A stretch of DNA of 64,000 bases, taken from Peptococcaceae bacterium BICA1-8. Its GTDB lineage: Bacteria; Bacillota; Peptococcia; Peptococcales; BICA1-8. Shown here one piece after another: positions 4,696-43,932 of the stretch. The notes below the pieces were generated by a model. It was not told the DNA's origin. It worked only from the letters and a program-made list of their open reading frames with translations, and made no database searches. The DNA lies in assembly GCA_000802045.1 (NCBI GenBank), contig JUEF01000135.1:8287-72286 (forward strand), given 5' to 3'. Made by a program: the position numbers and the translations under genes. The first letter of the stretch is position 1. Each line of letters opens with the position of its first letter.

Positions 4696-4717
4696 AATAA
4701 TAAACCGGAGTGATATA

Positions 4718-4915
4718 ATGATAAAGGTAAACAACAGGCCGGTAGAGTGGCAGGAGGGTATGACCATAAAAAAACTAATAAACATCCTCAAATACTCCTA
4801 CCCTGTACTGATTGTCACTATAAACGGCGAACATATCCCAAGGGAAAAATATGAAGCAGCTACCGTCTCAGACGGTGATGACGTAAAAATAATCCATCCT
4901 ATTGCAGGAGGATAA
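4718..4915 (+). CDS. ThiS/MoaD-like ubiquitin-fold sulfur-carrier protein
   Basis: 65 aa ending in the diagnostic C-terminal GG (..HPIAGG). Sits directly after the AOR gene. Confidence 0.8.
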   Translation: MIKVNNRPVEWQEGMTIKKLINILKYSYPVLIVTINGEHIPREKYEAATVSDGDDVKIIHPIAGG

Positions 4916-4917
4916 AA

Positions 4918-4954
4918 ACAAAGCCGGCCTTTTGGGGTCGGTTTTGTTTCGTTT
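4918..4954 (+). terminator. Putative intrinsic terminator after the AOR operon
   Basis: 10-bp stem ACAAAGCCGG/TCGGTTTTGT (with G-U pairs), 10-nt loop, then a T-rich tract. Confidence 0.55.
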
Positions 4955-5055
4955 GGAAAGGGAAGTACTTGCTATGTTAGCATATATTTAATAGATAGGG
5001 ATATAATTGTATCATGCTGAATCCCTGAAGCATTTTCATAATATTTTCCCGTTGG

Positions 5056-5088
5056 TAGGGGCAGACCTGTGTATGTGCGTCTGCCCTA
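5056..5088. repeat. REP-like GC-rich hairpin (TAGGGGCAGAC ... GTCTGCCCTA)
   Basis: Near-perfect inverted repeat. Belongs to the GTAGGGG-hairpin class also seen at 23396, 23549 and 34771. Confidence 0.7.
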
Positions 5089-5194
5089 TGGTATTTTGTA
5101 TTTAACAAATAAAATAATTTCCATGAAGGAATTTGTTCTAAATTGTTGAATAAACTATGTTTAATTCTGTTTTTATAATAAGGGAGGGAATATA

Positions 5195-5482
5195 ATGCAG
5201 GCTAAAGGAAGTACAAGGATAGTTGTTACAGTTGTTGGTAAAGACAAAGTAGGTATCATCGCTGGTGTGGCTAACGTGTTGAGTGACTTAAATGCAAATA
5301 TCTTAGACATAAGCCAAACGATTTTACAGGATTTCTTTACCATGATAATGATTGTAGATATTGCCAAGTGTAATGTAGATTTCAATACGCTCAAAACAAG
5401 ACTGGAGGATAAAGGACAGGGAATCGGAGTAAAAATATCAGCACAGCATGAGGATGTTTTCGAATTTATGCATCGGATCTAA
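5195..5482 (+). CDS. ACT domain protein (UPF0237-type)
   Basis: VVTVVGKDKVGIIAGV ACT fold signature. Conserved pairing with the downstream UPF0210 gene. Confidence 0.85.
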   Translation: MQAKGSTRIVVTVVGKDKVGIIAGVANVLSDLNANILDISQTILQDFFTMIMIVDIAKCNVDFNTLKTRLEDKGQGIGVKISAQHEDVFEFMHRI

Positions 5483-5497
5483 AGGAGGAAGAAACAA

Positions 5498-6865
5498 ATG
5501 CCAATTTCCATTACTACAGAAGAAATATTAGAAACTATTCGGATGGTGGAGGCTGAGAATCTCGATATCCGTACAATTACTATGGGAATTTCTTTACGGG
5601 ACTGTGCCCATTCTGACCTAAAAGTTACCTGTAGAAAAATATATGATAAGGTGACCCATACAGCAGGAGATCTGCTAAAAGTAGGAGCACAAATTGAGGC
5701 AGAATATGGAATACCCATTATAAATAAAAGAATCTCTGTTACTCCTATTGCCATTGTGGCGGAAGCGTGTGAGGCGGAAAATTATGTTGATATAGCTATA
5801 AGTCTTGATAAAGCAGCCAAAGAGGTCGGCGTGAATTTTATCGGAGGTTTTTCCGCTTTAGTACATAAGGGATTAACCAAAGGTGATGAGAAGCTAATCT
5901 ATTCTATACCTCAAAGCTTGGCCCAAACAGAAAGAGTTTGTGCTTCTGTTAATGTTGCCACAACTAAAGCAGGCATCAATATGGACGCTGTAAAAATAAT
6001 GGGAAGAATAATTAAAGAAACAGCAGAATTAACCAAAGAAAAAAATGGCTTGGGTTGTGCAAAACTGGTAGTTTTCTGTAATGTACCAGAAGACAATCCC
6101 TTTATGGCCGGAGCCTTTCATGGTATTGGCGAACCGGAAGCAGTTATTAATGTAGGTGTCAGTGGCCCCGGGGTTATCTTAAATGTAGTCAGAGCAAACC
6201 CTGATATTACCTTTGGTGTGCTAGCTAGCAGGATTAAGGAAACTGCCTTTAAAATAACTAGAATGGGAGAATTAGTGGGTAAGCAAGCGGCTAGAAGATT
6301 AGGTCTTCCTTTTGGTATTGTTGACCTTTCTCTAGCTCCTACTCCTGCCGTCGGTGACAGTGTTGCTGATATTCTAGAAGCTATGGGTCTGGAAAGATGT
6401 GGAACCCACGGAACAACGGCTGCCTTAGCCATGCTTAATGATGCGGTAAAAAAAGGTGGGGCTATGGCATCTTCTTATGTAGGAGGTTTAAGTGGTGCGT
6501 TTATTCCCGTTAGTGAAGATGCAGGGATGATTAGGGCCGTTGAAGAGGGTGCCTTAGATATAAATAAATTAGAAGCCCTGACCTGTGTCTGTTCTGTTGG
6601 ATTGGATATGATTGCAGTACCAGGTGATACCAGTGCTGCAACTCTTTCCGCAATTATTGCCGATGAAGCAGCTATTGGAATGATCAATAAGAAAACCACT
6701 GCTGTTCGAATTATTCCTGTTCCAGGTAAGCAGGTAGGTGAGATGGTAGTCTTTGGCGGGTTATTAGGACGTGCTCCTATTATGCCTGTAAATAAATTTA
6801 GCTCGGAAAGCTTTATTAATCGAGGAGGCAGGATACCAGCACCTATCCATGCCCTAAACAACTAA
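5498..6865 (+). CDS. UPF0210 / PFL-like (DUF711) family protein
   Basis: 455 aa. N-terminus [30 protein letters not shown] is typical of UPF0210. Coupled to the ACT gene. Confidence 0.9.
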
Positions 6866-9349: not shown

Positions 9350-10272
9350 TGGATAAATTAACCTTTATAGTTGAAGAAGATGAACAAGAACAGCGCTTAG
9401 ATGTCTTTATCTCTGAAAATTTGGAGGCAATATCCCGTTCCTATATCCAAAAATTAATTAGTGAAGAATTAATAAAGGTTAATGGAAAAAAAGTAAAATC
9501 TAATTACCGTTTAAAAGAAGAAGATTTAATAGAAGCAGTTATACCCGATCCTCAGCCTTTGGTTATTGAGGCTGAGAATATTCCGTTAGAAATAGTTTAT
9601 GAAGATAGTGATTTACTAGTAGTAAATAAACCAATTAATATGGTAGTTCATCCTGCGGCAGGTAATTATTCTGGTACTTTAGTCAATGCTTTACTTTACC
9701 ATTGTCAAGACCTATCAGGTATCAACGGAAAACTGCGGCCAGGAATTGTCCATCGAATTGATAAAGATACTTCCGGTTTGTTAATGGTTGCAAAAAATGA
9801 TATTAGTCATCAACAGTTAGCAAGGCAATTAAAGGAGCATACTGTTGATCGTGCATATTTGGCATTAGTTCATGGGAATGTTTCGGAACCTGGTGGAATT
9901 ATTGATGCTCCTGTGGGTCGACATCCTACCGATCGAAAAAAAATGGCAGTTACTCTAAAGAATTCCAAGAATGCCATTACTAAATATATGATTAAAGAGC
10001 GTTTCCTTGACTATTCCTTTGTGGAATGCAGATTAGAAACCGGTAGAACCCATCAAATTAGAGTACATATGGCTTATATTAGTCATCCCTTAGTAGGCGA
10101 TTTACTGTATGGATATAATAAAAGGAATAGCCTGGGCTTTGATGGTCAGGCTTTACATGCTTATCTTATTGGCTTTGAACACCCTCGTACTAAAGAAAGA
10201 ATGCAATTTCAAATTGATTTGCCAGATAATTATCAAGAAATTCTAAATAAATTACGTAAGGAGGATTTTTAA
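9349..10272 (+). CDS. rluD: RluA-family 23S rRNA pseudouridine synthase D
   Basis: S4 domain plus the HRIDKDTSGLL catalytic motif. lspA-rluD-pyrR synteny. Confidence 0.9.
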   Translation: MDKLTFIVEEDEQEQRLDVFISENLEAISRSYIQKLISEELIKVNGKKVKSNYRLKEEDLIEAVIPDPQPLVIEAENIPLEIVYEDSDLLVVNKPINMVVHPAAGNYSGTLVNALLYHCQDLSGINGKLRPGIVHRIDKDTSGLLMVAKNDISHQQLARQLKEHTVDRAYLALVHGNVSEPGGIIDAPVGRHPTDRKKMAVTLKNSKNAITKYMIKERFLDYSFVECRLETGRTHQIRVHMAYISHPLVGDLLYGYNKRNSLGFDGQALHAYLIGFEHPRTKERMQFQIDLPDNYQEILNKLRKEDF

Positions 10273-10818
<546 letters not shown>

Positions 10819-10921
10819 TTTTCTAAACATTTTTTTGTTGAATGCCCGAAAGAAGGAATATGAGGAAATAATGGCGAAATAAAGGTAATAAAAAATTCTT
10901 ATAGTTTGGGGGCATTTGATA

Positions 10922-11833
10922 TTGGTTAATGATAGCATTAGGGTCTTTCTGGCGGTAGCAGACAAAAGGAACTTTTCTAAGGCTGCTAAATCCTTGTTTT
11001 TGACCCAACCTGCAGTAAGCTTTCAGATTCAGATGCTAGAACAATATTATGGCACAGTCTTATTTGACAGAGTCAATCGCAATATTACATTAACATCTGC
11101 TGGTGAACTCCTATTGAGTTATGCGCAGGAATTAAGTACTCTTCAAGCAAATCTTGAAAGAGAAATGCAGGAGCTTACCGGTACAATTAAGGGTAGGTTG
11201 ATGCTGGGCGCTAGCACAACCATAGGTGAATATGTTTTGCCCTACCTGGTAGGAGGATTTAAAAAGCAATTTCCCGAAGTTGACGTAAGCTTAGTGGTAG
11301 CTAATACTGAGGATATTGAAACAAGTATTCTCAATACTACTTTAGATGTAGCATTAGTAGAGGGTCCTGTGAGTGGTAAAGATCTGAATACGGAGAAGTT
11401 TCTTGATGATGAATTAGTATTAATTACTCCGATGGATCACCCTTGGGTAAATAATAAAAGAATCTCTGTTTTTGAGTTAAGCCAATATCCTTTTATCACT
11501 AGAGAGAAAGGTTCAGGAACAAGGCATATTATGGAGAATGCTTTTAAAAAGGTGGGTTTTAACCCAAATAATCTGAACATTATAATGGAATTAGGTAGTA
11601 CTACTGCTATTAAAGCAGCAGTATCTAGCGGATTAGGTGTTTCAATCATTTCTGAATGGGCCGCTAAGGATTTGGTAAAACAAAACAAGTTGGCGACTAT
11701 AGCTATACATGAAACAAAGTTTGAACGCCAATTTACTGTTATTTATCATGAGAAAAAATTTAGAACAAAGGCTGCATATGAATTTCTAAACTTTTTGCGT
11801 AGTGAAGAGGTCCATGATATGCTAAAACAATAA
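10922..11833 (+). CDS. LysR-family transcriptional regulator (paralog 1, YeiE-like context)
   Basis: HTH region FSKAAKSLFLTQPAVSFQIQMLE. Start set by alignment to paralog 2 and a GGGGG RBS; the ORF track starts at 10916. Confidence 0.85.
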   Translation: MVNDSIRVFLAVADKRNFSKAAKSLFLTQPAVSFQIQMLEQYYGTVLFDRVNRNITLTSAGELLLSYAQELSTLQANLEREMQELTGTIKGRLMLGASTTIGEYVLPYLVGGFKKQFPEVDVSLVVANTEDIETSILNTTLDVALVEGPVSGKDLNTEKFLDDELVLITPMDHPWVNNKRISVFELSQYPFITREKGSGTRHIMENAFKKVGFNPNNLNIIMELGSTTAIKAAVSSGLGVSIISEWAAKDLVKQNKLATIAIHETKFERQFTVIYHEKKFRTKAAYEFLNFLRSEEVHDMLKQ

Positions 11834-11858
11834 TTTATTAATAAGGCAGGGAACGTTC

Positions 11859-12746
11859 GTGCTGATACGTAATAGTCTAAGTAAGGTTTTAAGGGAAAAA
11901 GAGATAACATTAGCACAACTAGCAGAGGAGAATAACATCCCCATAGCAACCTTAGAACAAATTTATTTAGGACACAAAGAGTTTACTCCTGAAATCTTAA
12001 ATAAAATAGCAGATTACTTAAATATTTCCCAAGAAGCTATATTATTTGACAGTAAAAAAAATATTTATGATAATATTGGTATCCAGCTCAGACAAATTAG
12101 GGAAGAAAAGAAGATGACCTTAATTCAATTGGGTAAAATATCCGGTGTTTCTTATACTCATATCAGTGAAATTGAGCGAGGGAAAACCTGCGCTTCCCTA
12201 AAAACTTTAGAAAAACTGGCCATAGTTTTAGAAATTCCTACAAGATATTTTTTTCAACTTGAGGAAAATTTTACCTTGGGTGATAAAGTAAGAAGGTTAA
12301 GGGAGAAGCAGAATCTTACCCAGGTTCAGCTAGCAGAAAAATTTGGTGTATCCCTAAGTCTAATAGGGCAAATTGAAACTGGTAGGGTTAAGCCTGCATT
12401 AGATACTTTACAAAGCATTGCCAATGTTTTTGGAGTGAATATTTGTTATTTTCTTATGACAGAAACTGAGGAAATGTCTTTGAGACAGGCGAACTCTGGC
12501 TGTGCAACTTCCTATGATAAACTTATAGAATTAACTCAAGGAATTCAGCCCCAAGGTTTTGCTTTAATAATTGATTTAATAAATGTATTAAAAACCCACA
12601 ATCGTTTTAATATCAATGATGAAATTATAAATAACCAGACTAAAGAACTATTAGATATTATGGCTGATCTTTCTGAGGATGATAAAAATTATATTATTGA
12701 AAACGCCCGTTGGGTTTTAAAAAAAGCAAAATCAAATACGCAATAA
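11859..12746 (+). CDS. Protein with three tandem XRE-type HTH domains plus a ~90-aa C-terminal domain
   Basis: Three repeats of the XRE pattern: ..ITLAQLAEENNIPIATLEQIYLG.., ..MTLIQLGKISGVSYTHISEIERGK.., ..LTQVQLAEKFGVSLSLIGQIETGR... Confidence 0.8.
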   Translation: MLIRNSLSKVLREKEITLAQLAEENNIPIATLEQIYLGHKEFTPEILNKIADYLNISQEAILFDSKKNIYDNIGIQLRQIREEKKMTLIQLGKISGVSYTHISEIERGKTCASLKTLEKLAIVLEIPTRYFFQLEENFTLGDKVRRLREKQNLTQVQLAEKFGVSLSLIGQIETGRVKPALDTLQSIANVFGVNICYFLMTETEEMSLRQANSGCATSYDKLIELTQGIQPQGFALIIDLINVLKTHNRFNINDEIINNQTKELLDIMADLSEDDKNYIIENARWVLKKAKSNTQ

Positions 12747-12768
12747 ATCGCCCAAAAGGCGATTTTTC
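12745..12768 (+). terminator. Intrinsic terminator
   Basis: AAATCGCC-CAAAA-GGCGATTT followed by TT; begins on the last base (12745) of the final sense codon CAA (12743-12745), so the TAA stop codon (12746-12748) lies inside the 5' stem. Confidence 0.7.
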
Positions 12769-13073
12769 CTATTTAGTACCTTCTACACTAGTTATATTCT
12801 GATAAGTCTTGTTAAATAAATTTACATTAATGTGACCGAACTTTCTTTAGATAAAAAGAAGGGAATAATAAAATAATTGTTGAATGTTGTAAATTGGGGT
12901 GATAAGGGACAGTATAAACATACATTATTAAACAAATTTCTTTACTATATTTTTCTGCTAGAAGTTTCTAAAATGGTTTAGAAATAAATAGTAGGTATTC
13001 AACGAAAGAGTGTAAAATCTAATTAATAAATATAAAAAAACTATTAATTATTTATGAAAGGTGGAATACGACT

Positions 13074-13985
13074 TTGTTAAATGATAGTATTAGAGTATTT
13101 CTGACAGTTGTTGATAAAAAAAGTTTTTCTAAGGCTGCAAAAGCATTGTTTCTTACACAGCCAGCTATTAGTTTTCAAATTCAGATGCTTGAAGAATATT
13201 ATGGGACAAGACTTTTTGATAGGGTAAGTAGGAATATTTCTTTGACTCAGGCCGGGCATTTATTGCTTGGATATGCTAATCACATGACTAAATTGCAAAG
13301 TGAGCTAGAGAGAGAAATGCAAGAATTAACCGGAACTATCAAAGGACGGCTATTAATCGGTGCCAGTACAACTATTGGTGAATATATTGTTCCCTATCTT
13401 TTAGGTGCATTTAAGAAAAAATATCCTGAGGTAGAGCTCTCCTTAGAGGTTGGTAATTCAGAGGATATTGAAAATAAGATTCACGATACATCATTGGATA
13501 TAGGGCTTGTGGAAGGACCGGTAACCGTTAAGGATATTGAAAAGGAACTGTTTTTAAAAGACCAAATGGTTTTAGTAGTTTCCCATGACCACCCTTGGGC
13601 TCAACTGGATAAAATATCCGTATTTGAATTAGATAAATTCCCCTTTATTTCTAGAGAAAAGGGGTCAGGGACAAGAATTGAGACTGAGCAGCATTTGAAA
13701 AAGACGGGTTTTTCTGCAAATAATTTAAAAGTTATTATGGAATTGGGAAGTACTTCTGCGATAAAAGCAGCAGTGGAAAGCGGCTTAGGTATGTCTATTA
13801 TCTCTAAGTGGGCCGCAAAAGAAAAGGTTAAACTGGGGCAGCTTGCGCAGCTTAATTTCAAGGAGGATATTTTTGAGAGAGATTTTAATGTTATCCACCA
13901 TAAGAAAAAGTTCCGTACCCAGGCAGCTGATGAGTTTCTGCGTTTTATAAAAACAAGTGAGGCTTTAGATTTATTAGAAAGGTAG
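13074..13985 (+). CDS. LysR-family transcriptional regulator (paralog 2)
   Basis: Collinear with the 10922-11833 product along its whole length (same HTH and TGTIKGRL motif). TTG start after AAGGTGG. Confidence 0.85.
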   Translation: MLNDSIRVFLTVVDKKSFSKAAKALFLTQPAISFQIQMLEEYYGTRLFDRVSRNISLTQAGHLLLGYANHMTKLQSELEREMQELTGTIKGRLLIGASTTIGEYIVPYLLGAFKKKYPEVELSLEVGNSEDIENKIHDTSLDIGLVEGPVTVKDIEKELFLKDQMVLVVSHDHPWAQLDKISVFELDKFPFISREKGSGTRIETEQHLKKTGFSANNLKVIMELGSTSAIKAAVESGLGMSIISKWAAKEKVKLGQLAQLNFKEDIFERDFNVIHHKKKFRTQAADEFLRFIKTSEALDLLER

Positions 13986-14040
13986 GATATTCACAAAATT
14001 AGACCTACTGTATCTACAGAGTTAAATATTATTTTATATA

Positions 14041-14086
14041 AATAAAGAAGAAGCACATTAAATAGTGCTTCTTCTTCTTTATTTAT
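14041..14086. terminator. Bidirectional hairpin terminator between convergent genes
   Basis: AATAAAGAAGAAGCAC-ATTAAATA-GTGCTTCTTCTTCTTTATT, flanked by A/T runs on both sides. Confidence 0.75.
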
Positions 14087-14382
14087 TATTTCTTACTTTC
14101 CATCCAAGATATAAATTTAAAGCAGGCGTATCCCCAAAGGAAAAAAAGGCCGAAGAAGAGGAAGGGTTGCTTAGTTCCTAAAGTAATGCTCTTTTCTCCA
14201 AAAAATATTTCTTCCCATCCAGGGAGATCCGTATAATAATATTGACCAGGGCCAAAGTCCAGACCCTCAATCAGACCTATATTATTACGCATTATGTATA
14301 TTGCAACAATTAGTACTGAAGCTAGAACTAGGATACTTAGTATATTTAGCCTGCGGGTCGTAAGGAATTTCTGACTACCCAT
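14086..14382 (-). CDS. Small two-TM membrane protein, family A/B (paralog of 18098-18367)
   Basis: GAGGTG RBS. Shares GxGxYYY, GTKxP, FFxLFFxW and CxxFxxWME motifs with the other small ORF. Confidence 0.7.
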   Translation of the reverse strand: MGSQKFLTTRRLNILSILVLASVLIVAIYIMRNNIGLIEGLDFGPGQYYYTDLPGWEEIFFGEKSITLGTKQPFLFFGLFFLWGYACFKFISWMESKK

Positions 14383-14617
14383 AACAACACCTCAATATGA
14401 TATGATTTTATAACTTTATTATACTGCTAATTGATGAATTGAAAAGATAATTCCAAAAAAACATTATATTAAAAGCTGTCTTCCTTTTAAAGCTCGCCTC
14501 CTTCCAGTGGAGCTAAAACTATGGCAAAGGAATATGTTTTCCGCTTAATAATTAAATTATAAGCATAAAAGGAACTTATGCATATCCCTCTTTTGTACTA
14601 ATTGACGAAATTTGCTG

Positions 14618-14651
14618 AAAAAAAAGGGTCCATTCCGTAAAGAATGGACCC
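14618..14651 (-). terminator. Intrinsic terminator of YeiH paralog 1
   Basis: On the minus strand: GGGTCCATTC-loop-GAATGGACCC followed by T8. Confidence 0.85.
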
Positions 14652-14664
14652 TTTAAAGAAGCAA

Positions 14665-16002
14665 TTATACTGTTAATACTGGAATTGGGAATATAACGCC
14701 ACTGAGTAGTAACCAAGCAACTAATAAGGTTAATACTAGGTTAAAGCTTTGACCTACAATGTATAACCAAAGTGGCTTACCGCCTTGGACAAGCTCAGCC
14801 ATTTCTTTAAAGTTGGACTCAAGGCCGATACAGACAAATGCCATACAGAAGCACCAGCCCTTCCAGCCACCTGTTAGACCTAATAGAGTTTTTGTTTCTT
14901 TAGCACCAATTGCCGGCTCAACAATAAAGGAGAAGATTAAAGACGCACCAATAAAACCAAGGATAAATTTGGGGAAACGGTGCCAGATTTCATCTGCTCC
15001 CACAGAAGGTCCGTCAACATCTTTCTCAACTTTTGTTGCAAAAAATACAGCAATGGCAAAAGCAATAACACCAATTAATACGTTTTGAATCATTTTAACA
15101 AGAGCAGCAACCTGACCCCCTAGTGGCCCTAATGCTTCACCGGCTAATACAACAGCACCTGTTGCGTCAACTGTACCACCGATCCAAGCACCGCCAACCA
15201 TAGGATCCATACCAATAGCTTTAATAAAGATAGGCATACCAACCATCATTAAAACTGTAAAAATTAAGGATAAGCCAATTGCAAAGGTTAAATCGTCCTT
15301 TTTAGCTTTGGAAGCGGCTGCTGCAGCGATAGCGGCTGAAACACCACAAACAGAAGTAGCAGTAGCGATAACTATTACCATAGGCTTACTGGTCATTTTA
15401 AGTATTTTTGTACCATAATGCCACATGAAAATAATTACGATAGGAGTAACGAACCAAGCAATACCTAAACCATAGATACCAAATTTAACTACATTGGAGA
15501 AAAGAACCTCAGCACCCATTAAAACCAGACCGGTTTTAATGTAGTATTCAGTTTTTACAGCAGGCTTTAACCAATCGGGAGTTTTTACAGTATTACTTAC
15601 TAAAAGACCTACTGCTAATGCCCAGAAAGCATACTCTACATATTTTTTCATAGTTGCTTGAGCACCTAATATATAGGCAATTGTAGCTAAGAGGAATATT
15701 ACAGGGAAGGCAATTGCAAATTTAGGTACGTTTTCGCCCATAAATACTAATCCAATTGAAAAAAGAGCAGTTAATACAACCATTGTGATTAGTAAACTAG
15801 CAATATCAAAAGAACCTAAGAAACTTGGAACCTTTTCGGTTCCCCATGTTGCGATCTTGGATGCATTAAACTTAAAAGCTCCTGTGGATTTACTGATAGC
15901 AGCTATTATAATTACGATAAGTCCAAGCCAAATTGCCCACCAGTCTTCTTTCTTTATTAAATCCGACCATTTAAACTTACTAGCTGTTACGACATCTGAC
16001 AT
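14665..16002 (-). CDS. YeiH/UPF0324 family membrane transporter (putative sulfate-exporter family), paralog 1
   Basis: Polytopic, 445 aa. Start moved to MSDVV (16002) by alignment with the paralogs and a GGAGGTG RBS 8 nt upstream. Confidence 0.9.
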   Translation of the reverse strand: MSDVVTASKFKWSDLIKKEDWWAIWLGLIVIIIAAISKSTGAFKFNASKIATWGTEKVPSFLGSFDIASLLITMVVLTALFSIGLVFMGENVPKFAIAFPVIFLLATIAYILGAQATMKKYVEYAFWALAVGLLVSNTVKTPDWLKPAVKTEYYIKTGLVLMGAEVLFSNVVKFGIYGLGIAWFVTPIVIIFMWHYGTKILKMTSKPMVIVIATATSVCGVSAAIAAAAASKAKKDDLTFAIGLSLIFTVLMMVGMPIFIKAIGMDPMVGGAWIGGTVDATGAVVLAGEALGPLGGQVAALVKMIQNVLIGVIAFAIAVFFATKVEKDVDGPSVGADEIWHRFPKFILGFIGASLIFSFIVEPAIGAKETKTLLGLTGGWKGWCFCMAFVCIGLESNFKEMAELVQGGKPLWLYIVGQSFNLVLTLLVAWLLLSGVIFPIPVLTV

Positions 16003-16383
16003 ATAAAGCACCTCCAAAATTTAAAATATTTTATAGGGTATTTGAACAATTAATTTTTTTAATCCCTCCTTATAATTTAGATAAATAACGCCGCGGTACA
16101 GTCATTGAGCATATTGATGCTGTCATACACACAAATTTAGGGTGTGTTTTAATTATAAGTTATCAAAAAAAATCTTTATATCATTCTTTAATACCATCTT
16201 TATTAAATGCATTAGGAAAATTTATTAATTTAGGAAAAAGCATTTGTTGAACTAAAAAATTAAGATAATGCAGGTAGATGAAATTAGACTAAATCTCATA
16301 ATAATAAAATAAAGAGGCCAGATGGCCGCTTTAAAAGGAAATAATTATTCAATTATCATTTTTCGTAGTAGTAGCATTTTAGT

Positions 16384-16420
16384 GAAAAATGGCACCATTC
16401 CTGAAGGAATGGTGCCATTT
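16384..16420 (-). terminator. Intrinsic terminator of YeiH paralog 2
   Basis: On the minus strand: AAATGGCACCATTCC-TTCA-GGAATGGTGCCATTT followed by TT. The stem is related to the paralog 1 terminator, with compensatory changes. Confidence 0.8.
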
Positions 16421-16424
16421 GATA

Positions 16425-17768
16425 TTATACTGTTAATACTGGAATTGGGAAGATAACGCCGCTTAGTAATAACCAGGCTACTAATAAGGTTAATACTAAG
16501 TTAAAGCTTTGTCCCACGACATACAGCCAAAGTGGCTTACCACCTTGAACAAGCTCAGCCATGTCCTTGAAGTTAGACTCAAGACCAATTGATACGAAGG
16601 CCATGCAGAAGCACCATGCTTTCCAACTTCCAGATAAGGAAAGTATAGCTTTAGTATCCTTTGTACCTATTGAAGGCTCAACCAAGAAGGAGAATATTAT
16701 CGATCCTACAATAAAACCAAGAATAAATTTAGGGAAACGGTGCCAAATTTCATCGGCGCCCACAGAGGGTCCATCAACATCTTTTTCAACTTTTGTTGCA
16801 AAAAATACGGCAATGGCAAAAGCGATAACACCAATAAGAACGTTTTGAATCATTTTAACCAGAGCAGCAACTTGACCTGCTAATGGCCCTAAGGTTTCTC
16901 CGGCAAGTACAACTGCACCGGTAGCATCAATGGTTCCACCCATCCATGCTCCACCAAGCATCTCATTCATACCAATAGCTTTAATGAACATAGGCATGAA
17001 GACCATCATTAATACGGTGAAGATAAGGGTTAAACCGATGGCAAAGGTTAAGTCTTCTTTCTTTGCTTTAGAAGCAGCGGCAGCGGCAATAGCTGCAGAA
17101 ACCCCGCAAACCGAAGTAGCTGTCGCAATAACGATAACCATAGGTTTGCTGGTCATTTTCAAGATTTTGGTACCATAATACCACATAAAGACTATAACAA
17201 TTGGAGTAACAAACCAAGCAATACCTAGACCGTAGAAACCAAATTTAACAACATTGGAGAATAGTACTTCAGCACCCATCAGTACAAGACCTGTTTTAAT
17301 ATAGTATTCTGTTTTAACGGCCGGCTTTAGCCACTCGGGGGTTTTTACGGTATTACTTACCGCAAGTCCGACCACTAGTGCCCAGAAGGCGTACTCAATA
17401 TATTTTTTCATTGTGGCTTGAGCACCAAATACATAAGCAATTGTTGCTAAGATAAAAACAACAGGGAAGGCGATTAAGAAGCCTTTCACATCTTCTCCCA
17501 TAACTTTAAGACCGAGAGCAAATAATGCACCTAGTACAATTAGACTGAAAATTAATAAGCCTACTTGACCATTAAAAGCATCCATAATGCTAGGCGCCTT
17601 TTCATTTCCCCAAGTAGCTATTTTGGCGGCCTTAAAGGCGAAAGCACCTGTAAATTTACTTATTGCTGCTAAAGCTAATACAATGAATCCAAGCCAAATT
17701 GCCCACCAATCTTCTTTCTTTGTTAAATCAGACCATTTAAACTTACTAGCTGTTACGATATCTGACAT
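16425..17768 (-). CDS. YeiH/UPF0324 family membrane transporter, paralog 2
   Basis: 447 aa. Very similar to paralog 1, including an identical C-terminus LLSGVIFPIPVLTV. Confidence 0.9.
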   Translation of the reverse strand: MSDIVTASKFKWSDLTKKEDWWAIWLGFIVLALAAISKFTGAFAFKAAKIATWGNEKAPSIMDAFNGQVGLLIFSLIVLGALFALGLKVMGEDVKGFLIAFPVVFILATIAYVFGAQATMKKYIEYAFWALVVGLAVSNTVKTPEWLKPAVKTEYYIKTGLVLMGAEVLFSNVVKFGFYGLGIAWFVTPIVIVFMWYYGTKILKMTSKPMVIVIATATSVCGVSAAIAAAAASKAKKEDLTFAIGLTLIFTVLMMVFMPMFIKAIGMNEMLGGAWMGGTIDATGAVVLAGETLGPLAGQVAALVKMIQNVLIGVIAFAIAVFFATKVEKDVDGPSVGADEIWHRFPKFILGFIVGSIIFSFLVEPSIGTKDTKAILSLSGSWKAWCFCMAFVSIGLESNFKDMAELVQGGKPLWLYVVGQSFNLVLTLLVAWLLLSGVIFPIPVLTV

Positions 17769-18097
17769 TTAATACACCTCCATAAAATTTTAGATAAAGA
17801 CGGAAGAAAAACATAGTAAAAATTTTAGTCAGTCCTCACCACCCATATAAATGACTTATTTGATCGATAAATTATTACGATTATATTATATTAAAAATTG
17901 TTATACACTGATAATCCACCATTCTTACTATTTTTTGACAAAAAAGTAAGTCAGGTAATAAGGGGTTGCGCTATATATAAATTTAGTATAAAAACATAAA
18001 TAGGAAAATACTTGCGGCTACTTGTTTTATTCTTTTTTAGCAGGAAATTGGGTACTTTTAGTTGAAGTAAAGCATGAGGTGATATGAGGTGATAAAT

Positions 18098-18367
18098 ATG
18101 AAGCAGAGGCCAAAAATAAATAGTAAGTTAGGGAAAATGAGTTTATTGATAATTTTAATAATTATAGTAGTAATTGTTTATGCTATTGTAGTAGATCCTT
18201 GGAACATAAGTGAGGCGCCTTACGGCGCTGGGGATTATTATTATGATGAAGTAGAGGGTTATGATTTTAGCATAAGCATAGGTACTAAACATCCTATTAT
18301 ATTTTTCATTTTGTTTTTTGGCTGGGCTTTTGGCTGCTGGCATTTTTTAAAGTGGATGGAAAGATAA
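18098..18367 (+). CDS. Small two-TM membrane protein, family A/B (paralog of 14086-14382)
   Basis: ATG at 18098 lies 5 nt after GAGGTG. Shares motifs with the 14086-14382 product. Confidence 0.7.
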   Translation: MKQRPKINSKLGKMSLLIILIIIVVIVYAIVVDPWNISEAPYGAGDYYYDEVEGYDFSISIGTKHPIIFFILFFGWAFGCWHFLKWMER

Positions 18368-18463
18368 AGCTTGGGATTTTTGATAAAAAGGATCATAATT
18401 AAACTTCGTTATAAAAAAAATAGGTTAATGAGAGAAAAACAGTAATAATAATTGAGTGTAAAG

Positions 18464-18492
18464 AAAAAAAGCCGAGCTATTGCTCGGCTTTA
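18464..18492. terminator. Bidirectional terminator (small ORF on +, YeiH paralog 3 on -)
   Basis: A7-GCCGAGC-TATT-GCTCGGC-TTTAATT. Confidence 0.75.
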
Positions 18493-18499
18493 ATTAATT

Positions 18500-19843
18500 T
18501 TACATTGTTAAATTGGGTATTGGGAAGATAATTCCACTTAACAGCAACCAAGCCACTAAGAGAGTTAATACTAAGTTAAAGGTTTGACCAACAATGTATA
18601 ACATTAATGGCTTGCCGCCTTGTACAAGCTCAGCCATATCTTTAAAGTTAGATTCTAATCCTATACAGGTAAAGGCCAGACAGAAGCACCATCCTCTAAA
18701 GCCTTTAGCTAAGCCCGTAACGCCCTTTGTTCCAGCTGCACCCAAAACGGGTTCTACTATAAAGGAAAAAATGACTGAGGCTGCTATGAAACCAAGGATG
18801 AATTTTGGGAAGCGATGCCAGATTTCACTAGCTCCTACAGCAGGGCCGTCGACATCTTTGTCTACTTTAGTTGCAAAAAATACAGCTATGGCGAAGGCGA
18901 TAACGCCTATAAGTACGTTTTGAATCATTTTAACCATTGCAGCTACTTGACCAGCCAAAGGTCCCAATGCTTCTCCAGCAAGAACAACTGCACCGGTAGC
19001 ATCAATTGTTCCACCCATCCAGGCTCCACCTATCATTTCGTTCATGCCAATAGCTTTAATAATCATAGGCATGAAGATCATCATTATAACTGTAAAAATG
19101 AGGGTTAAACCAATGGCGAAAGTTAAATCTTCTTTTTTAGCTTTAGAAGCTGCAGCAGCGGCAATGGCTGCCGAAACACCACAAACAGAAGTCGCGGTAG
19201 CGATTACAATAATCATGGGTTTGCTAACCATTTTTAATACTCTAGTACCGTAATACCACATAAATATTACTACTATTGGAGTAACAAACCAGGCTATACC
19301 TAATCCGTAAATACCGAATTTTACAATGTTTGAAAAGAGAACTCCAGAACCCATTACAACCAAACCTGTTTTTATATAATACTCTGTCTTAACAGCTGGT
19401 TTTAGCCATTCAGGGGTCTTTATAGTATTGCTAACCAAAAGACCAATAGCCAGCGCCCAAAAAGCGTAGCCTAAATAGTTTTTTATGCCGGCATTAGCTG
19501 AAAAGAGATAGGCTAATGTTGAAAGAATGAATACTACCGGGAAACCAATGAGGAATTTCCCAACATCACCGCCCATTACTTTCAGACCGATAGCGAATAA
19601 AGCGCCTAGTATTATCATTGTTATTAATAATGATGGTAAAGTACCATTAAAGGAATCAAAAATACTAGGTGCTTTCTCTACACCCCAGGTATTAAGTTTA
19701 GCGGCTTTAAAGCTAAAAGTACCAGTAGTAGAACTAATAAATGAGAGAATAAGGATAATAAATCCAAGCCAAATTGCCCACCAATCTTCTTTATTGATAA
19801 GATCTTTCCATTCAAACTTACTAGTCGTTACGACATCAGACAT
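18500..19843 (-). CDS. YeiH/UPF0324 family membrane transporter, paralog 3 (most diverged)
   Basis: 447 aa, collinear with paralogs 1 and 2. AGGAGGTG RBS. Confidence 0.9.
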   Translation of the reverse strand: MSDVVTTSKFEWKDLINKEDWWAIWLGFIILILSFISSTTGTFSFKAAKLNTWGVEKAPSIFDSFNGTLPSLLITMIILGALFAIGLKVMGGDVGKFLIGFPVVFILSTLAYLFSANAGIKNYLGYAFWALAIGLLVSNTIKTPEWLKPAVKTEYYIKTGLVVMGSGVLFSNIVKFGIYGLGIAWFVTPIVVIFMWYYGTRVLKMVSKPMIIVIATATSVCGVSAAIAAAAASKAKKEDLTFAIGLTLIFTVIMMIFMPMIIKAIGMNEMIGGAWMGGTIDATGAVVLAGEALGPLAGQVAAMVKMIQNVLIGVIAFAIAVFFATKVDKDVDGPAVGASEIWHRFPKFILGFIAASVIFSFIVEPVLGAAGTKGVTGLAKGFRGWCFCLAFTCIGLESNFKDMAELVQGGKPLMLYIVGQTFNLVLTLLVAWLLLSGIIFPIPNLTM

Positions 19844-20330
19844 TTAAATACACCTCCTGAAAATTTGAGAAGCTTAATTGAATTAATCTAAAGAACCAGA
19901 CCCTCCTTTCGTTATGTAAAAATAATTACAAACAAGAGAACATTGATTAAAGACAAATAAAAAATACTTATAAATTAATTTAGCTATAACTAATTATAAG
20001 TATAAATTATATTTAATAAAACCCCTCGATTTTACTAGAACTGTAAATTAACTAAAAATAATGACGGAAATTATTTAAAATAATTACTGTTTTGAACTTA
20101 TTGGTATAAAATACTGGTTAATAAAGGGAATGAAAAGGTGCATGTTAAAATTAATTTTAAATATAGAGTAAAGAAGTAAACGTTATATAATATAAAATTA
20201 TTAATAATATAAAAAATTCTTATATATATACTTTTGATAGTTATGTAGGTTTTCGAAATCCTTGTGTAGAATAGTACAAATTAACTATGAAAATACATAG
20301 TACTTCCTACCTAATTGGAGTTGATTTGAT

Positions 20331-21662
20331 GTGAAAAATAATTTAGAAGACTATTATGTGAATATCAAATGGATGGCTTTTGTTATTCCAGTCCTATGGG
20401 TAGGCATTTATGAAGTGTTACGGTTTCAAATTCTAGGCAATATATTTACGCCAATCATTAATAGTGTCATATTAATATGTTCAGTTGGTTTTTTCGGACT
20501 TATTTTTTCGGCATATTTGTTTAGAAAGATTAGGACTATTCATAATTCACTTTTTTTAGAACAGCAAAAACTGAAAACTATCTTTCATCATACATCTGAC
20601 GGAATTATCGTTTTAGGAGAGAATTGTCAGATCCTTGATATCAACCCAGCCGTAGAAAAATTAACAGGGTGGAAAGCTAAAGAGGTAATTAAGAAAATTA
20701 CTTGTGAAGAAATGAACCGGTGTTTAAAGAGTACAGAGGCCTGTTGGAATTCTCAAAATCCCGAAGGCTGCATGAATGTAGACTGTGGGCATAGGGAGTG
20801 CTGGGGTAAGACTTGCCTGGAAAAACAAATTTCAGTTCCCCATGTAGAGATGTGTCTTGTTTGTAAAAATGGTAAGAAAATTAAGGTTGCCGCCAGTTAT
20901 TCTTACATACCTGCTGTAGGCGAGGAAAAGCCGTTGGTAAAGCTTGTTCTAAGAGATATCTCTGAAAAAAAAGAATTTGAAAAGGCTATTCAAAATTATG
21001 CTACTTTAGAGGAAAGATACAGACTAGCCAGAGAAATGCATGATGGATTAGCGCAAGCTTTAGTTTATTTAAATATTAAGGCTTATAATATTCAAAAGAA
21101 TTTAGAAAAGCATGGTAACCATGATTCTATTATTAATGACCTAGTTGAAATAAGGCAGGTTACCCAGGAGGCTGTTAATGAAGTCCGTCAGAATATTTTT
21201 GATTTAAAAACACCTCCTAGAGATGAAACTAGTTGTTTTAGGGTATGGATTGAGGATTATCTAAAAAACTTTGGTTTTATAAATCATTTAGATACTGAGT
21301 TTTTCTGTAATTGTCAGGCAGCACTTATATTACCTACTGATGTCAAAGTTCAATTAATTAGGATTATTCAGGAGGCTTTAACTAATATCAGAAAGCATGC
21401 TCGAGCTACAAAAATAAATATCTTTTTAACAAAGAATGAGAAGAAATTAATTATTAAAATTACTGATAATGGAAAAGGTATTGATTTAACTACTCTAAAT
21501 ATGGACACAAAGGAACATTTCGGATTAACTATAATGAAGGAAAGAGCTCAAATTATCGGAGGAGATATAAAAATTATTCCAGGTGAAGCCCGAGGAACTC
21601 TTGTAGAATTGACTTTGCCATTGATTAATGGATATGAAAGAAATAATAGGATAGCAAATTAG
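20331..21662 (+). CDS. Membrane sensor histidine kinase, HisKA_3/NarL-partner type, with a PAS-like domain carrying a nine-Cys insert
   Basis: Two N-terminal TM helices, H-box REMHDGLAQAL, and HATPase motifs (DNGKGI, GLTIMKERA). Cys-rich segment encoded at 20703-20864. GTG start. Confidence 0.85.
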   Translation: MKNNLEDYYVNIKWMAFVIPVLWVGIYEVLRFQILGNIFTPIINSVILICSVGFFGLIFSAYLFRKIRTIHNSLFLEQQKLKTIFHHTSDGIIVLGENCQILDINPAVEKLTGWKAKEVIKKITCEEMNRCLKSTEACWNSQNPEGCMNVDCGHRECWGKTCLEKQISVPHVEMCLVCKNGKKIKVAASYSYIPAVGEEKPLVKLVLRDISEKKEFEKAIQNYATLEERYRLAREMHDGLAQALVYLNIKAYNIQKNLEKHGNHDSIINDLVEIRQVTQEAVNEVRQNIFDLKTPPRDETSCFRVWIEDYLKNFGFINHLDTEFFCNCQAALILPTDVKVQLIRIIQEALTNIRKHARATKINIFLTKNEKKLIIKITDNGKGIDLTTLNMDTKEHFGLTIMKERAQIIGGDIKIIPGEARGTLVELTLPLINGYERNNRIAN

Positions 21663-21693
21663 TTGTACCGGCTGATTTAAAGGGGGCATTGAA

Positions 21694-22347
21694 ATGTTAA
21701 AGTTTAAAGTACTTTTAGTCGATGACCACGCTTTATTCCGTAAAGGGATGGCCAGTTTATTAAATGAACTTAAGGAACTAGAAATAATTGGCGAAGCAAG
21801 TAATGGTAAAGAAGGGGTTGAGAAAGCTAGAGAACTCAAGCCAGATATTATTATCATGGATGTGGAAATGCCTGAGATGACAGGAGTAGAGGCAGTAAAA
21901 GTTATTAAAGAGGAACTTCCACAGTGTAAAGTAGTTATGCTAACAATATCTGAGGATGATGACAATTTATTTAAATCAATTAAAAATGGAGCTCAAGGGT
22001 ATTTATTAAAGAGTATGGACCCTGATGATTTAATTAGACAAATAAAAGATTTGTTAAAGGGTGAGGCTGCTTTATCAAAGACGATAGCTAGTAAAATTTT
22101 AAAAGAATTTGCAAACCTTTCTAAAAAGCAAAAGGAAGTAGATTATCATAAATTTAATCTGACTGAAAGAGAGGGAGAGGTTTTAATTCAGGTAGCTCAG
22201 GGAATTACTAATAAGGAGATTGCTCTTGAACTGGCGATTACTGAGAATACAGTTAAGAATCACCTCTGCAATATCATGGAAAAACTCCACCTCCAGAATC
22301 GTGTCCAGTTAGCGACTTTTGCCTGGCGGGAAGGGTTTGTTGAATAA
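21694..22347 (+). CDS. NarL/LuxR-family response regulator
   Basis: Receiver domain (VLLVDDH...DIIIMDVEMPEMTG) plus a LuxR-type HTH (LTEREGEVLIQVAQGITNKEIA). Confidence 0.9.
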   Translation: MLKFKVLLVDDHALFRKGMASLLNELKELEIIGEASNGKEGVEKARELKPDIIIMDVEMPEMTGVEAVKVIKEELPQCKVVMLTISEDDDNLFKSIKNGAQGYLLKSMDPDDLIRQIKDLLKGEAALSKTIASKILKEFANLSKKQKEVDYHKFNLTEREGEVLIQVAQGITNKEIALELAITENTVKNHLCNIMEKLHLQNRVQLATFAWREGFVE

Positions 22348-22526: not shown

Positions 22527-23399
22527 ATGGAATTTCCTCAATGGGATATTCTAATTATCGGTTGTGGGCCCGCTGGGCTTTCAGCGGCGGTAAATGCGAC
22601 AATTCGTAACAAAAAGGCAATAGTATATGGCGGAGAGTTTTGCAGTCCCAAGCTTCATAAAGCTCCACATGTCAATAACTATTTAGGTTTCTGGGATGTA
22701 TCAGGAGAAGAATTGCGGAAAAAATATCTCAATCATGTTCAACAGTTAGATATAAAAATGGAATGTCATAAAATTGATAATATTTACCCTGCCGGGAAAT
22801 CTTTTAATGTTGTCAGTAAGGGCAATATGATTATGTGTAATGCAATAATAATTGCAGTAGGCTTGCAAAATCCTAAATACCTGCCAGGAGAAGAGGAACT
22901 GTTGGGCAAGGGTGTGGGTTATTGTGCTACCTGTGATGGCCCTTTGTATAAAGGGAAAAAGGTTGCAGTAATTGGTTATAACACAGAGGCAGAGGAAGAG
23001 GTTAACTATTTGGCCGGGTTAGCTAGCCAAGTTATATATCTTCCGTTGTATCAAGGGCTAGGAAGTATCGACAGTAGAGTTCGAATTTTAAATGAAAGAC
23101 CCAAGGCTCTATTAGGTACAGATAGATTACAAGCACTAGAAACGGAAGGGGAAACCCTAGAACTAGATGGATTATTTATTATTCGGGATAGTGTTCCTCC
23201 AGCTCAGCTTTTGCCTGGCTTGGAGCTTGAGGAAAACGCAATAGTAGTAAATAGAAAAATGTCTACAAATATAACCGGTGTATTTGCTGCCGGTGACTGC
23301 ACCGGTGCCCCTTATCAGCTGGCCAAAGCAGTAGGTGAAGGAGCAGTTGCAGGACTAAGTGCTGTGAGTTATTTGGAAGAAATGAATAAGGGAAAGTAG
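22527..23399 (+). CDS. Thioredoxin-reductase-like flavoprotein with a CATC redox motif but no recognisable NADPH-binding motifs
   Basis: IIGCGPAGLSAA FAD fingerprint and a CATCDG active site. The position of GGGxSA reads GYNTEA, and no HRRxxxR motif follows. Confidence 0.8.
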   Translation: MEFPQWDILIIGCGPAGLSAAVNATIRNKKAIVYGGEFCSPKLHKAPHVNNYLGFWDVSGEELRKKYLNHVQQLDIKMECHKIDNIYPAGKSFNVVSKGNMIMCNAIIIAVGLQNPKYLPGEEELLGKGVGYCATCDGPLYKGKKVAVIGYNTEAEEEVNYLAGLASQVIYLPLYQGLGSIDSRVRILNERPKALLGTDRLQALETEGETLELDGLFIIRDSVPPAQLLPGLELEENAIVVNRKMSTNITGVFAAGDCTGAPYQLAKAVGEGAVAGLSAVSYLEEMNKGK

Positions 23400-43259: not shown

Positions 43260-43932
43260 GGATAGTTTTCTCACTGACAAAAACAGAGGCCTTTTTGTGG
43301 TTGCTGATGGTATGGGAGGTCATGAAGCAGGAGAACTGGCAAGCAGCATAGCCATCAAAACATTAGACGATTTTTTAACCAGGGAAGTAATTACTAATCA
43401 AAAAAGTAAGGGCTTATGTCAGGCTATTCAGAAAGCTAATGAACTGGTTAATGAAGAATCCAGATTAAATACTAATTGCGCAGGTATGGGTACCACTATT
43501 ACAGCTGCTTTATTAATTGATAATATGCTATATATCGCGCATATTGGCGATAGCCGGGCTTATCTTGTTAGGGACAAAACGATTAGTTTATTGACAAAGG
43601 ATCATTCTCTCGTAGGAGAATTATTAAGACAGGGAGAGTTGACGGAAAGTGAAGCATATAGACATCCCCATCGTAATATTCTAACCCGAGCCTTAGGGAC
43701 AGAACGGGAAGTAGAAATTGACCAAGTAGAAATAAAAATAAACCCCGGGGATTTACTCCTTTTATGTACAGATGGTCTTTATAATTTAGTACATGATAAT
43801 GAAATTTTAAGGGAAATTATTCATAATAGCAGTGATATGAAAAAATCAGTAGATCAATTAGTACAAATAGCCCTTGACCGAGGAGGAGTCGATAATATTA
43901 CGATTATTTTGGTAAGTTGTGATGAGCAATAG
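43210..43932 (+). CDS. stp: PP2C-family Ser/Thr phosphatase
   Basis: TNIGLVRKANEDSF, VADGMGGHEAG and DNITIILV motifs. GAGGTGG RBS. Confidence 0.9.
   Translation: MHVNSLTNIGLVRKANEDSFLTDKNRGLFVVADGMGGHEAGELASSIAIKTLDDFLTREVITNQKSKGLCQAIQKANELVNEESRLNTNCAGMGTTITAALLIDNMLYIAHIGDSRAYLVRDKTISLLTKDHSLVGELLRQGELTESEAYRHPHRNILTRALGTEREVEIDQVEIKINPGDLLLLCTDGLYNLVHDNEILREIIHNSSDMKKSVDQLVQIALDRGGVDNITIILVSCDEQ

Follow-up and report, generated by a model that had tools for sequence, protein, structure and literature searches.

This study concerns a stretch of 64,000 nt (64 kb; hereafter the window) whose proteins are identical to those of Peptococcaceae bacterium BICA1-8 and of a borehole metagenome contig of the Joint Genome Institute (JGI). 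Downstream of pyrR, it carries three genes for YeiH-type transporters (YeiH1 to YeiH3), two genes for small membrane proteins (small1 and small2) and a group of regulatory genes. With a confidence only slightly above even, we interpret these genes as an inducible sulfite (sulfur-oxyanion) homeostasis locus, in which two kinds of transporter, each with a small partner protein, would export sulfite to relieve sulfite stress. The locus occupies a stable place in the chromosome of a subsurface Peptococcaceae bacterium, and it was compared with genome and metagenome contigs labeled L001, L002 and so on. All of the components listed by the first-pass annotation of this DNA, namely two LysR regulators, an XRE protein with three helix-turn-helix (HTH) domains, three PF03601 proteins, two small proteins, a histidine kinase, a response regulator and a gene similar to thioredoxin reductase (TrxR-like), were recovered where it had placed them.

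Several findings in the literature link the YeiH family with sulfite. The LysR-type regulator YeiE binds sulfite (PMC8931317). In Salmonella, YeiH is needed for sulfite resistance, as the yeiH mutant is highly sulfite-sensitive, and the gene is induced by YeiE together with sulfite (PMC12880088). In Bordetella, excess cysteine induces a YeiH-family gene; a mutant in this gene was cultured with sulfite and sulfate added, and the product was named a 'sulfite exporter' by the authors (bioRxiv 2026.04.22.720190). All of the experimental data for the PF03601 family concern sulfite. The earlier description of the substrate as poorly defined is, given the YeiE and Salmonella results, partly outdated.

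YeiH1 (14665..16017), YeiH2 (16425..17768) and YeiH3 (18500..19843), all on the minus strand, encode proteins of 445-450 amino acids (aa) that are 79-84% identical to one another (84% for YeiH1 and YeiH2), and their DNA is 72-84% identical with repeat spacings of 1760 and 2075 nt. The true start of YeiH1 is probably the sixth codon, at 16002, as in the 445-aa protein called in L001. Profile searches bore out the proposed assignment to PF03601, with E-values of 3.3e-45, 1.8e-47 and 3.3e-46 for YeiH1, YeiH2 and YeiH3, scores of 155-162 bits (cut-off 24.5) and coverage of profile positions 2-303 of 304 in all three; the curated model of the YeiH subfamily, TIGR00698, gave 62.6-70.6 bits, under its cut-off of 232.6. 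Judged by these scores, the three long-form PSE/YeiH proteins are a distant clade and not members of the E. coli-type YeiH subfamily.

In a distance tree the transporters fall into two types. The a-type comprises YeiH3, which adjoins the kinase gene, the kinase-adjacent copies L002_a and L083_a, and L089, followed by L084, L088 and L090, the last of which is linked to dissimilatory sulfite reductase (dsr) genes. The b-type comprises YeiH1, which groups with L002_c, as well as YeiH2 and the orthologs of both. In L002, separate orthologs of YeiH1 and YeiH2 are found, but a single b copy is present in L083; therefore, the duplication that separated YeiH1 from YeiH2 is recent. What had been regarded as a triplication is instead an old split into two paralog types (YeiH3 versus YeiH1 and YeiH2) followed by one recent tandem duplication, of which YeiH2 is the tandem copy, and the locus contains two transporter-partner systems, one of them duplicated.

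The AlphaFold model of YeiH2, built with 49 homologs, is all-helical with about 20 helices (pLDDT 76.7, pTM 0.72), and two helices, at residues 19-40 and 69-90, precede the Pfam domain, which begins near residue 100. In comparison with the PDB, CitS was the nearest structure, followed by antiporters of the NapA/NHA2 type and ASBT, at TM-scores that are low (about 0.27), and no solved structure related to YeiH by sequence was detectable. The published description of PSE places the family in the CPA/AT superfamily as a derivative of 2HCT, with forms of 9 and 11 transmembrane (TM) segments (bioRxiv 2020.11.05.368662), and the model agrees with this CPA/AT-type fold in its 11-TM form.

A distant transporter variant of 570-590 aa, 46-52% identical and with about 130 extra internal residues, was observed in marine and sediment metagenome contigs (L110-L148); in L111, L113, L118 and L120, it is followed by an open reading frame (ORF) of 112-121 aa weakly similar to the small protein (E 1e-4 to 6e-3). 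A fusion of transporter and small protein was considered and rejected, as the 570-590-aa variants carry internal insertions and not the small domain, and a 518-aa match, P0217, is a repeat protein and a false positive.

The component most tightly linked to the transporters is the small protein. The gene small1 (14086..14382, minus strand) encodes a membrane protein of 98 aa whose hydrophobic segments span residues 12-30 and 74-92, and small2 (18089..18367, plus strand) encodes a protein of 92 aa that likewise has two such segments; the two are 41% identical over 58 aa. We propose small1 as partner of the b-type YeiH1 and YeiH2 and small2 as partner of the a-type YeiH3. The three YeiH genes are co-oriented, as had been noted, and small2 lies on the opposite strand, so the description does not extend to it. 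Neither protein matched Pfam (E<=0.01) or NCBIfam, and both are annotated as 'hypothetical'. Their hallmarks are an N-terminal helix, the motif DFGxGxYYY(T/A)D and a Phe/Trp-rich C-terminal helix. An exhaustive profile search collected relatives in 92 representative clusters, compared with 12 by a word-indexed protein search.

The linkage was examined in a distant set of 80 loci at 52-67% identity, obtained with an alignment of long-form homologs that was used to scan a single genome from each species. Most of these loci belong to gut or rumen Bacteroidales, with some from Lachnospiraceae, Peptococcaceae, Lentisphaerae and others. When phmmer was run with the window proteins, a small1 homolog was found in 75 of the 80, in every case immediately downstream of the long-form YeiH gene and in the same orientation. 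Of the five loci without a match, four are on contigs that stop within 300 nt of the transporter stop codon, and only L070 truly lacks the gene, which leaves 75 of 76 informative loci. The gap between the two genes is 0-6 nt in 22 loci, and the mechanically called ORFs overlap in another 41. The small gene was also present in all nine metagenome loci at least 66% identical that had room for it.

The two transporter types pair with the two small-protein types. Genes of the small1 type follow the b-type and the distant transporters, and genes of the small2 type stand beside a-type YeiH genes, convergent in L084 and in the window and directly upstream in L088 and L090. These data suggest that the protein of about 95 aa and the long-form YeiH protein may be physically associated as a two-subunit transporter. 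Far from being a side item, as which it had been listed, the small protein is the one component linked to this transporter across phyla. Furthermore, a 38-nt relic of a YeiH 3' end (14418..14455, minus strand) lies 35 nt upstream of small1; it reads ...GIIFSIHQLAV-stop and matches the last 38 nt of YeiH1, YeiH2 and YeiH3 at 71-74% identity (direct-repeat family D7). This relic, which retains its stop codon, indicates that a transporter gene once stood closely before small1, as is the case elsewhere. No further remnants of small or YeiH genes were found in the window.

Several other observations were made around the transporter-small pair. In 25 loci (L011, L018, L049:11639-12265 and 22 other Bacteroidales), a CpXC-domain protein (PF14353, about 208 aa) follows the small gene, and its C-terminal 65 or so residues are weakly similar (E about 1e-4) to the part of the small protein that comprises the first helix and the motif. 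Proteins in which the small domain is present twice are encoded in L037 and L066. In L093, a different kinase-regulator pair (3272-5553; 522 and 236 aa) precedes the transporter-small pair, and a second small1-type gene (9541-9831) lies 1.7 kb downstream on the other strand. Upstream of the transporter, an SNF-family symporter was found in 10 loci and an unannotated protein of about 1034 aa in 23. Porin_O_P is directly adjacent on that side in 12 Bacteroidales loci (among L008-L082; for example, L032:8831-9952), and this anion-type porin is a weak hint in favor of a sulfur oxyanion. In P0150, a metagenome protein of 280 aa, a small-protein homolog is fused to NAD_binding_7, a single case that may be a gene-calling artefact. 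NAD_binding_7 is a domain of siroheme synthase (precorrin-2 dehydrogenase), and siroheme is the cofactor of sulfite reductases; the fusion is a weak hint of a connection with sulfite.

Concerning the regulators, LysR1 (10916..11833, plus strand) and LysR2 (13074..13985, plus strand) are paralogs, 65% identical, each with HTH_1 and LysR_substrate domains. Both exceeded the cut-off of 250 bits of NF040786, 'selenium metabolism-associated LysR' (272 and 280 bits, respectively), and the second-best model for both was YeiE (NF040889, the YeiE equivalog), at 197 and 209 bits, which does not reach its cut-off of 480. On these scores, they are relatives of YeiE and not orthologs. The residues lining the sulfite pocket of CsYeiE are S96, S97, N126, S127, E145, R191, S195 and T197, of which Glu145 excludes sulfate (PMC8931317). 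Aligned with the YeiE chain 8sbh, LysR1 (S,T,N,T,E,R,S,T) and LysR2 (S,T,N,S,E,R,S,T) keep eight of eight positions, Glu145 included, with Ser-to-Thr changes only. The orthologs in L002, L083, L169 and L170 also keep all eight and the LysR of L090 keeps seven (Leu at S97), whereas CbbR differs at four of the eight. The expected link between YeiH and a LysR regulator was thus recovered as two YeiE-related proteins with an intact sulfite-type pocket, although not as a divergent LysR-transporter pair, as LysR2 is convergent with small1 and YeiH1 and LysR1 lies two genes further off.

The histidine kinase gene (20331..21662, plus strand) encodes two N-terminal hydrophobic segments, a PAS domain with a Cys-rich insert, HisKA_3 and HATPase_c, and the adjacent response regulator gene (21694..22347, plus strand) encodes Response_reg and GerE domains, so that the pair has the domains of a NarL-family two-component system. 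Since the PAS domain comes after the two hydrophobic segments, it should face the cytoplasm. Residues C125, C131, C147, C152, H154, C157 and C175 of the kinase are unchanged across 13 homologs with identities as low as 44%; full-length members form a narrow family of about 25 clusters, and no homolog of the Cys-rich insert was found in the PDB. Homologs of the response regulator are divergent from an a-type YeiH gene in L084 and upstream of dsrA in L169.

The XRE regulator (11859..12746, plus strand) has three HTH_3 domains and is extended at its C-terminus by about 90 aa; orthologs are present in L002, L083 and L091, and a two-HTH form lies between the LysR and kinase genes of L170. The TrxR-like gene (22527..23399, plus strand) encodes a flavoprotein disulfide reductase with a CATC motif and a Pyr_redox_2 domain (TIGR01292, 192 bits, below the cut-off of 343). 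It occupies the same position in L002 and L083, and its homolog in L090 is divergent from a LysR gene of the NF040786 family. This recurrence with the same LysR type agrees with the earlier view of it as a fitting component and makes the gene a probable member of the regulon. In L002 and L083, an ORF of 247-248 aa without Pfam or NCBIfam match (L002:4923-5669 and L083:4653-5396) lies between the response regulator and TrxR-like genes; it is absent from the window, where only 179 nt separate the two genes.

The same regulators and transporter type occur beside dissimilatory sulfite reduction genes in relatives. L169, which was found through the most distant full-length kinase homologs, has the order lspA-rluD-pyrR-LysR-kinase-regulator-ferredoxin-dsrA-dsrB-(65 aa)-(53 aa)-dsrM-dsrK-dsrC-dsrN, and L170 has the order pyrR-LysR-XRE-kinase-regulator. 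In L085/L090, dsrAB...dsrC-dsrN is followed by a small2-type gene and an a-type YeiH gene (72% identical), and the LysR gene divergent from the TrxR-like homolog stands 6.6 kb further downstream. The LysRs of L169, L170 and L090, whether adjacent to dsr or to a TrxR-like gene, also pass NF040786 and so belong to one NCBIfam family with those of the window. None of the LysR, XRE, kinase and TrxR-like proteins was found in any of the 80 distant loci. The regulators, which had been seen as layers added to YeiH, are rather a lineage-specific module that flanks dsr in L169. The earlier proposal of an inducible sulfur-anion module is supported and has gained a much firmer footing from the conserved YeiE pocket, from the LysR-kinase-regulator set upstream of dsr in L169 and from the transporter homolog after dsrN in L085/L090.

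Under this sulfite reading, the a-type system would consist of YeiH3 and small2 and the b-type system of YeiH1 or YeiH2 and small1, with each transporter gene forming its own transcription unit. The YeiE-like LysRs would bind cytoplasmic sulfite in the conserved pocket and activate the b-type transporter genes as well as the gene for the TrxR-like protein. The kinase, anchored in the membrane and with its Cys-rich PAS domain in the cytoplasm, and the NarL-type regulator would provide an input of redox or sulfur state, controlling the adjacent a-type gene and their own promoter; in relatives, this second signal would be applied to the dsr operon. The XRE protein may add repression. The transporters would then move sulfite across the membrane, with export serving as stress relief. 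The substrate, the direction of transport, the physical association of transporter and small protein and the assignment of regulators to genes in this scheme are what we infer from gene content, linkage and residue conservation.

The gaps upstream of YeiH1, YeiH2 and YeiH3 measure 407, 320 and 487 nt, and a hairpin with a T-run stands after each YeiH gene, in agreement with the long upstream region and own terminator ascribed to each. These are a terminator-like hairpin after YeiH1 (14623..14654, minus strand; a 14-pair stem, then a T-run), a terminator hairpin after YeiH2 (16385..16416, minus strand; GGCACCATTCC-TTCA-GGAATGGTGCC and a T-run, read from the sequence, repeat pair I1) and a bidirectional terminator between small2 and YeiH3 (18468..18491, both strands). 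A further terminator-like hairpin between LysR2 and small1 (14044..14077) is bidirectional, as the scan was positive on both strands. The divergent control region between YeiH2 and small2 (17769..18088) contains promoter-like sites, and its promoter-proximal blocks are kept in L002 and L083. Upstream of the kinase gene, an 80-nt block (20245..20324) with the near-palindrome AGGTTTTCGAAATCCT and TGTGTAGAATAGTACAAATTAACTA and a -10-like TAGAAT hardly varies among the window, L002, L083 and L089 and is retained in part in L169; it is probably an autoregulated promoter or operator of the kinase gene.

The DNA repeats of the YeiH genes end at the ribosome-binding sites, and the three upstream regions are therefore unrelated to each other. 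A riboswitch or structured leader in these regions of 320-490 nt was considered and rejected. A search of Rfam returned nothing at gathering score and otherwise matches at chance level, leader fold z-scores were unremarkable (-2.5, 0.0 and -1.2), two strong whole-region z-scores belong to terminators of preceding genes, and comparison with orthologs showed that the promoter-proximal blocks are kept and the leader is not. As a shared operator, TTAGNCTAA was also rejected, as it looks conserved upstream of b-type genes in three genomes but occurs once in the window against 2.8 occurrences expected. Patterns of the ATAGTA type showed no clear enrichment in a search that used the wrong spacing for the spaced pattern. 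Among these candidate control elements, the 80-nt block preceding the kinase gene is the sole solid one.

Several points weigh against a sulfite exporter. The low TIGR00698 scores measure the distance of these proteins from the tested YeiH proteins of E. coli and Salmonella, and the long-form PSE/YeiH clade has no studied member. Linkage to dsr comes from two independent loci only (L169 and L085/L090), and the 64-kb window has no dsr gene. In gut Bacteroidales, the pair sits among housekeeping genes, which are uninformative on the substrate. Both LysRs pass an NCBI model named for selenium metabolism, and a shared operator lacks statistical support. Terminator-like hairpins stand between YeiH1 and small1, and small2 is on the other strand; the putative subunits are therefore not co-transcribed in the window. 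The direction of transport, in particular, is drawn from the phenotypes of the studied family members.

This last point bears on an alternative in which sulfite (or thiosulfate) is taken up as electron acceptor for a cytoplasmic dissimilatory sulfite reductase, with the dsr-linked regulators inducing uptake and reduction together. The a-type transporter and its small partner directly after dsrN in L085/L090 would fit such a role, as would the kinase-regulator pair, which is beside YeiH3 in the window and beside dsrAB in L169; moreover, no sulfite importer is known for sulfite-respiring Firmicutes. However, the known phenotypes of the family are sulfite-sensitive mutants only, which fits export (PMC12880088), no dsr genes were found in the 10-kb flanks of the gut Bacteroidales transporter-small loci, and the window itself has none. 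We consider uptake unlikely and export the more likely direction. A selenium module, with LysRs that sense selenite or other selenium species and transporters that carry selenite or selenate, either to supply the synthesis of selenoproteins or for detoxification, would account for the NF040786 scores, and the LysR_Se subfamily correlates with SelD-containing genomes (PMC5322559). Reduction of selenite by the TrxR-like enzyme is also conceivable. Selenite shares the pyramidal shape of sulfite. Nevertheless, none of selD, selA, selB, yedE and yedF was found in the Pfam annotation of the window downstream of the module or in the annotated flanks of L002, L083, L169 and L170; for the ORFs of the window upstream of lspA, which were not scanned, the annotation of L002 and L083 was used. 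LysRs of the same NCBIfam family adjoin dsr operons, the second-best model is YeiE and the pocket is that of a measured sulfite binder, which makes the selenium module very unlikely in our view.

The transporters might instead carry some other anion, organic or inorganic, with the sulfur-linked regulators being neighbors by history only. The pair is all that is kept across phyla, in the 80 loci that lack the regulators and the TrxR-like protein; the Bacteroidales neighbors are housekeeping genes, the CpXC protein, the SNF-family symporter and the porin; and the nearest solved fold is a citrate symporter (CitS). This idea is quite unlikely in our assessment, since regulators and transporters occur together in five related genomes or contigs, the transporter is dsr-adjacent in L090 and the characterized family members act on sulfite. 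A different type of proposal concerns the origin of the locus, which had been called an accessory island after pyrR; a recently acquired accessory or mobile island inserted there would fit the G+C content of the module (0.30-0.38), slightly below much of the window, and the variation among relatives of the genes after the regulators, which are dsr in L169 and YeiH in the window. However, its composition is only slightly below the window average, no tRNA was found in the window, no integrase or transposase is present among its ORFs, and the remaining genes of the window have housekeeping functions (dapF, gmk, coaBC, metK, priA, def, fmt, rsmB, rlmN and others). L002 and L083, two metagenome-assembled genomes (MAGs) at 70-90% protein identity to the window, share the order DUF5665, DksA-like, lspA, rluD, pyrR, then LysR-XRE-small-LysR-small-YeiH(n)-kinase-regulator-TrxR-like, then NFACT and Ca-ATPase, so that synteny is kept from DUF5665 to the Ca-ATPase gene, with three YeiH copies in L002 and two in L083; L091 and L089 have partial versions of this layout. 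The pyrR gene (10273..10818, plus strand; Pribosyltran), which is the conserved left boundary and lies outside the module, has orthologs in the same place in L002, L083, L169 and L170, and the pyrR-LysR junction, which L002, L083 and L091 share, persists even in L169 and L170, where the kinase is only 44-45% identical. A mobile island was rejected on these grounds, and recent acquisition in any form is extremely improbable.

One local rearrangement was seen within this conserved layout. A small2-type gene stands between the XRE gene and LysR2 in L002 (14417-14689) and L083 (12965-13240), whereas the corresponding 327-nt gap of the window (12747-13073) is empty, with no detectable remnant of such a gene, and small2 is found instead between YeiH2 and YeiH3.

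Compared with known systems, the sulfite homeostasis locus proposed here most resembles YeiE-YeiH of Salmonella, E. coli and Cronobacter, in which a PF03601 transporter also stands beside a LysR with the same pocket and a sulfite-bound LysR activates the transporter gene, the logic expected here (PMC12880088). It differs in that the window transporters belong to the long form, whose length of about 447 aa includes about 100 additional residues at the N-terminus; in the small partner, which E. coli YeiH is not known to have; and in a second LysR, an XRE protein, a two-component system and three transporter genes in place of a simple divergent pair. Within the PSE family (TCDB 2.A.98; same Pfam family), the 11-TM form PSE_2, with two extra N-terminal helices (bioRxiv 2020.11.05.368662), fits the hydropathy and model of YeiH, but the publications consulted describe no partner subunit, whereas one is proposed for the window. 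Such an arrangement has parallels among fold relatives of PSE, as LrgAB and LysAB are two-protein systems with a partner of about 100 aa (bioRxiv 2020.11.05.368662). LrgAB/CidAB and LysA/LysB likewise combine a larger transporter with a membrane partner of about 100 aa and share the reentrant-helix-reentrant fold with PSE; however, the window small protein has its own motif, DFGxGxYYY, and no match to the Pfam families of the LrgA/LysA partners (E<=0.01), and its association with YeiH would be deduced from gene linkage. TauZ, presumably also a PSE member, is a putative sulfate/sulfite exporter of taurine degraders.

For the regulators, the LysRs of the window, L169, L170 and L090 pass the cut-off of LysR_Se/HrsM (NF040786), but the neighbors in the window, L169 and L090 are sulfite-related (dsr and YeiH-type genes) and not Sec-decoding genes, and the pocket is that of a sulfite binder. 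NreB-NreC consists of a kinase with an Fe-S PAS domain and a NarL-type regulator. The window pair is similar in combining a HisKA_3 kinase that has a Cys-bearing PAS domain with a GerE-type regulator; in contrast to NreB, the window kinase is membrane-anchored, and the six Cys and one His that are invariant in its PAS insert have a spacing unlike that of NreB.

Three features elsewhere in the window were also recorded. An FMN riboswitch (50010-50124, plus strand; 117 bits, well over the gathering score) precedes the S component of an ECF transporter, presumably for riboflavin (ORF 50524-51087), with about 400 nt from the aptamer to the mechanically called start. An 861-aa ORF (43919-46504, plus strand) between a PP2C phosphatase and a PASTA Ser/Thr kinase fuses FtsW/RodA (SEDS) to a penicillin-binding transpeptidase domain, which are usually encoded by two separate genes. 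The genes at 54089-61405 (plus strand) encode methylmalonyl-CoA mutase (large and B12 subunits), MeaB, an epimerase-like protein of the glyoxalase family and a four-subunit Na+-translocating decarboxylase of the methylmalonyl-CoA/oxaloacetate type; this gene set is the succinate-to-propionate pathway.

The passage of sulfite across the membrane is poorly known in anaerobes that make or respire it, and so is the regulation of dsr in Firmicutes. What is new relative to YeiE-YeiH is a distant long-form clade, an unannotated small partner that looks obligate, two transporter types, and regulators shared with dissimilatory sulfite reduction. We tentatively raise the further possibility that the long-form PSE/YeiH protein and the DFGxGxYYY protein are an undescribed heteromeric transporter of sulfite or chalcogen oxyanions, which in sulfite-metabolizing Firmicutes would be part of a dsr regulon under 'selenium-associated' LysRs, which would in reality be sulfite sensors, and under a new PAS kinase, rich in Cys, as reporter of sulfur or redox state. 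Where the LysR gene stands beside dsr or YeiH-type genes, the NCBIfam name 'selenium metabolism-associated LysR' may mislead, and the small protein represents an unannotated family that current pipelines call 'hypothetical'. As the transporter-small pair is widespread in gut and rumen Bacteroidales and Clostridia, including Lachnospiraceae, it has relevance to habitats where the sulfite that comes from the diet, from the host and from taurine metabolism poses a real stress. The locus offers testable candidates: a transporter, a partner subunit, two LysRs with a sulfite pocket and a Cys-rich kinase. If this reading is true, they would be candidates for the sulfite transporter of dissimilatory sulfite reducers and for the regulators of their dsr genes.

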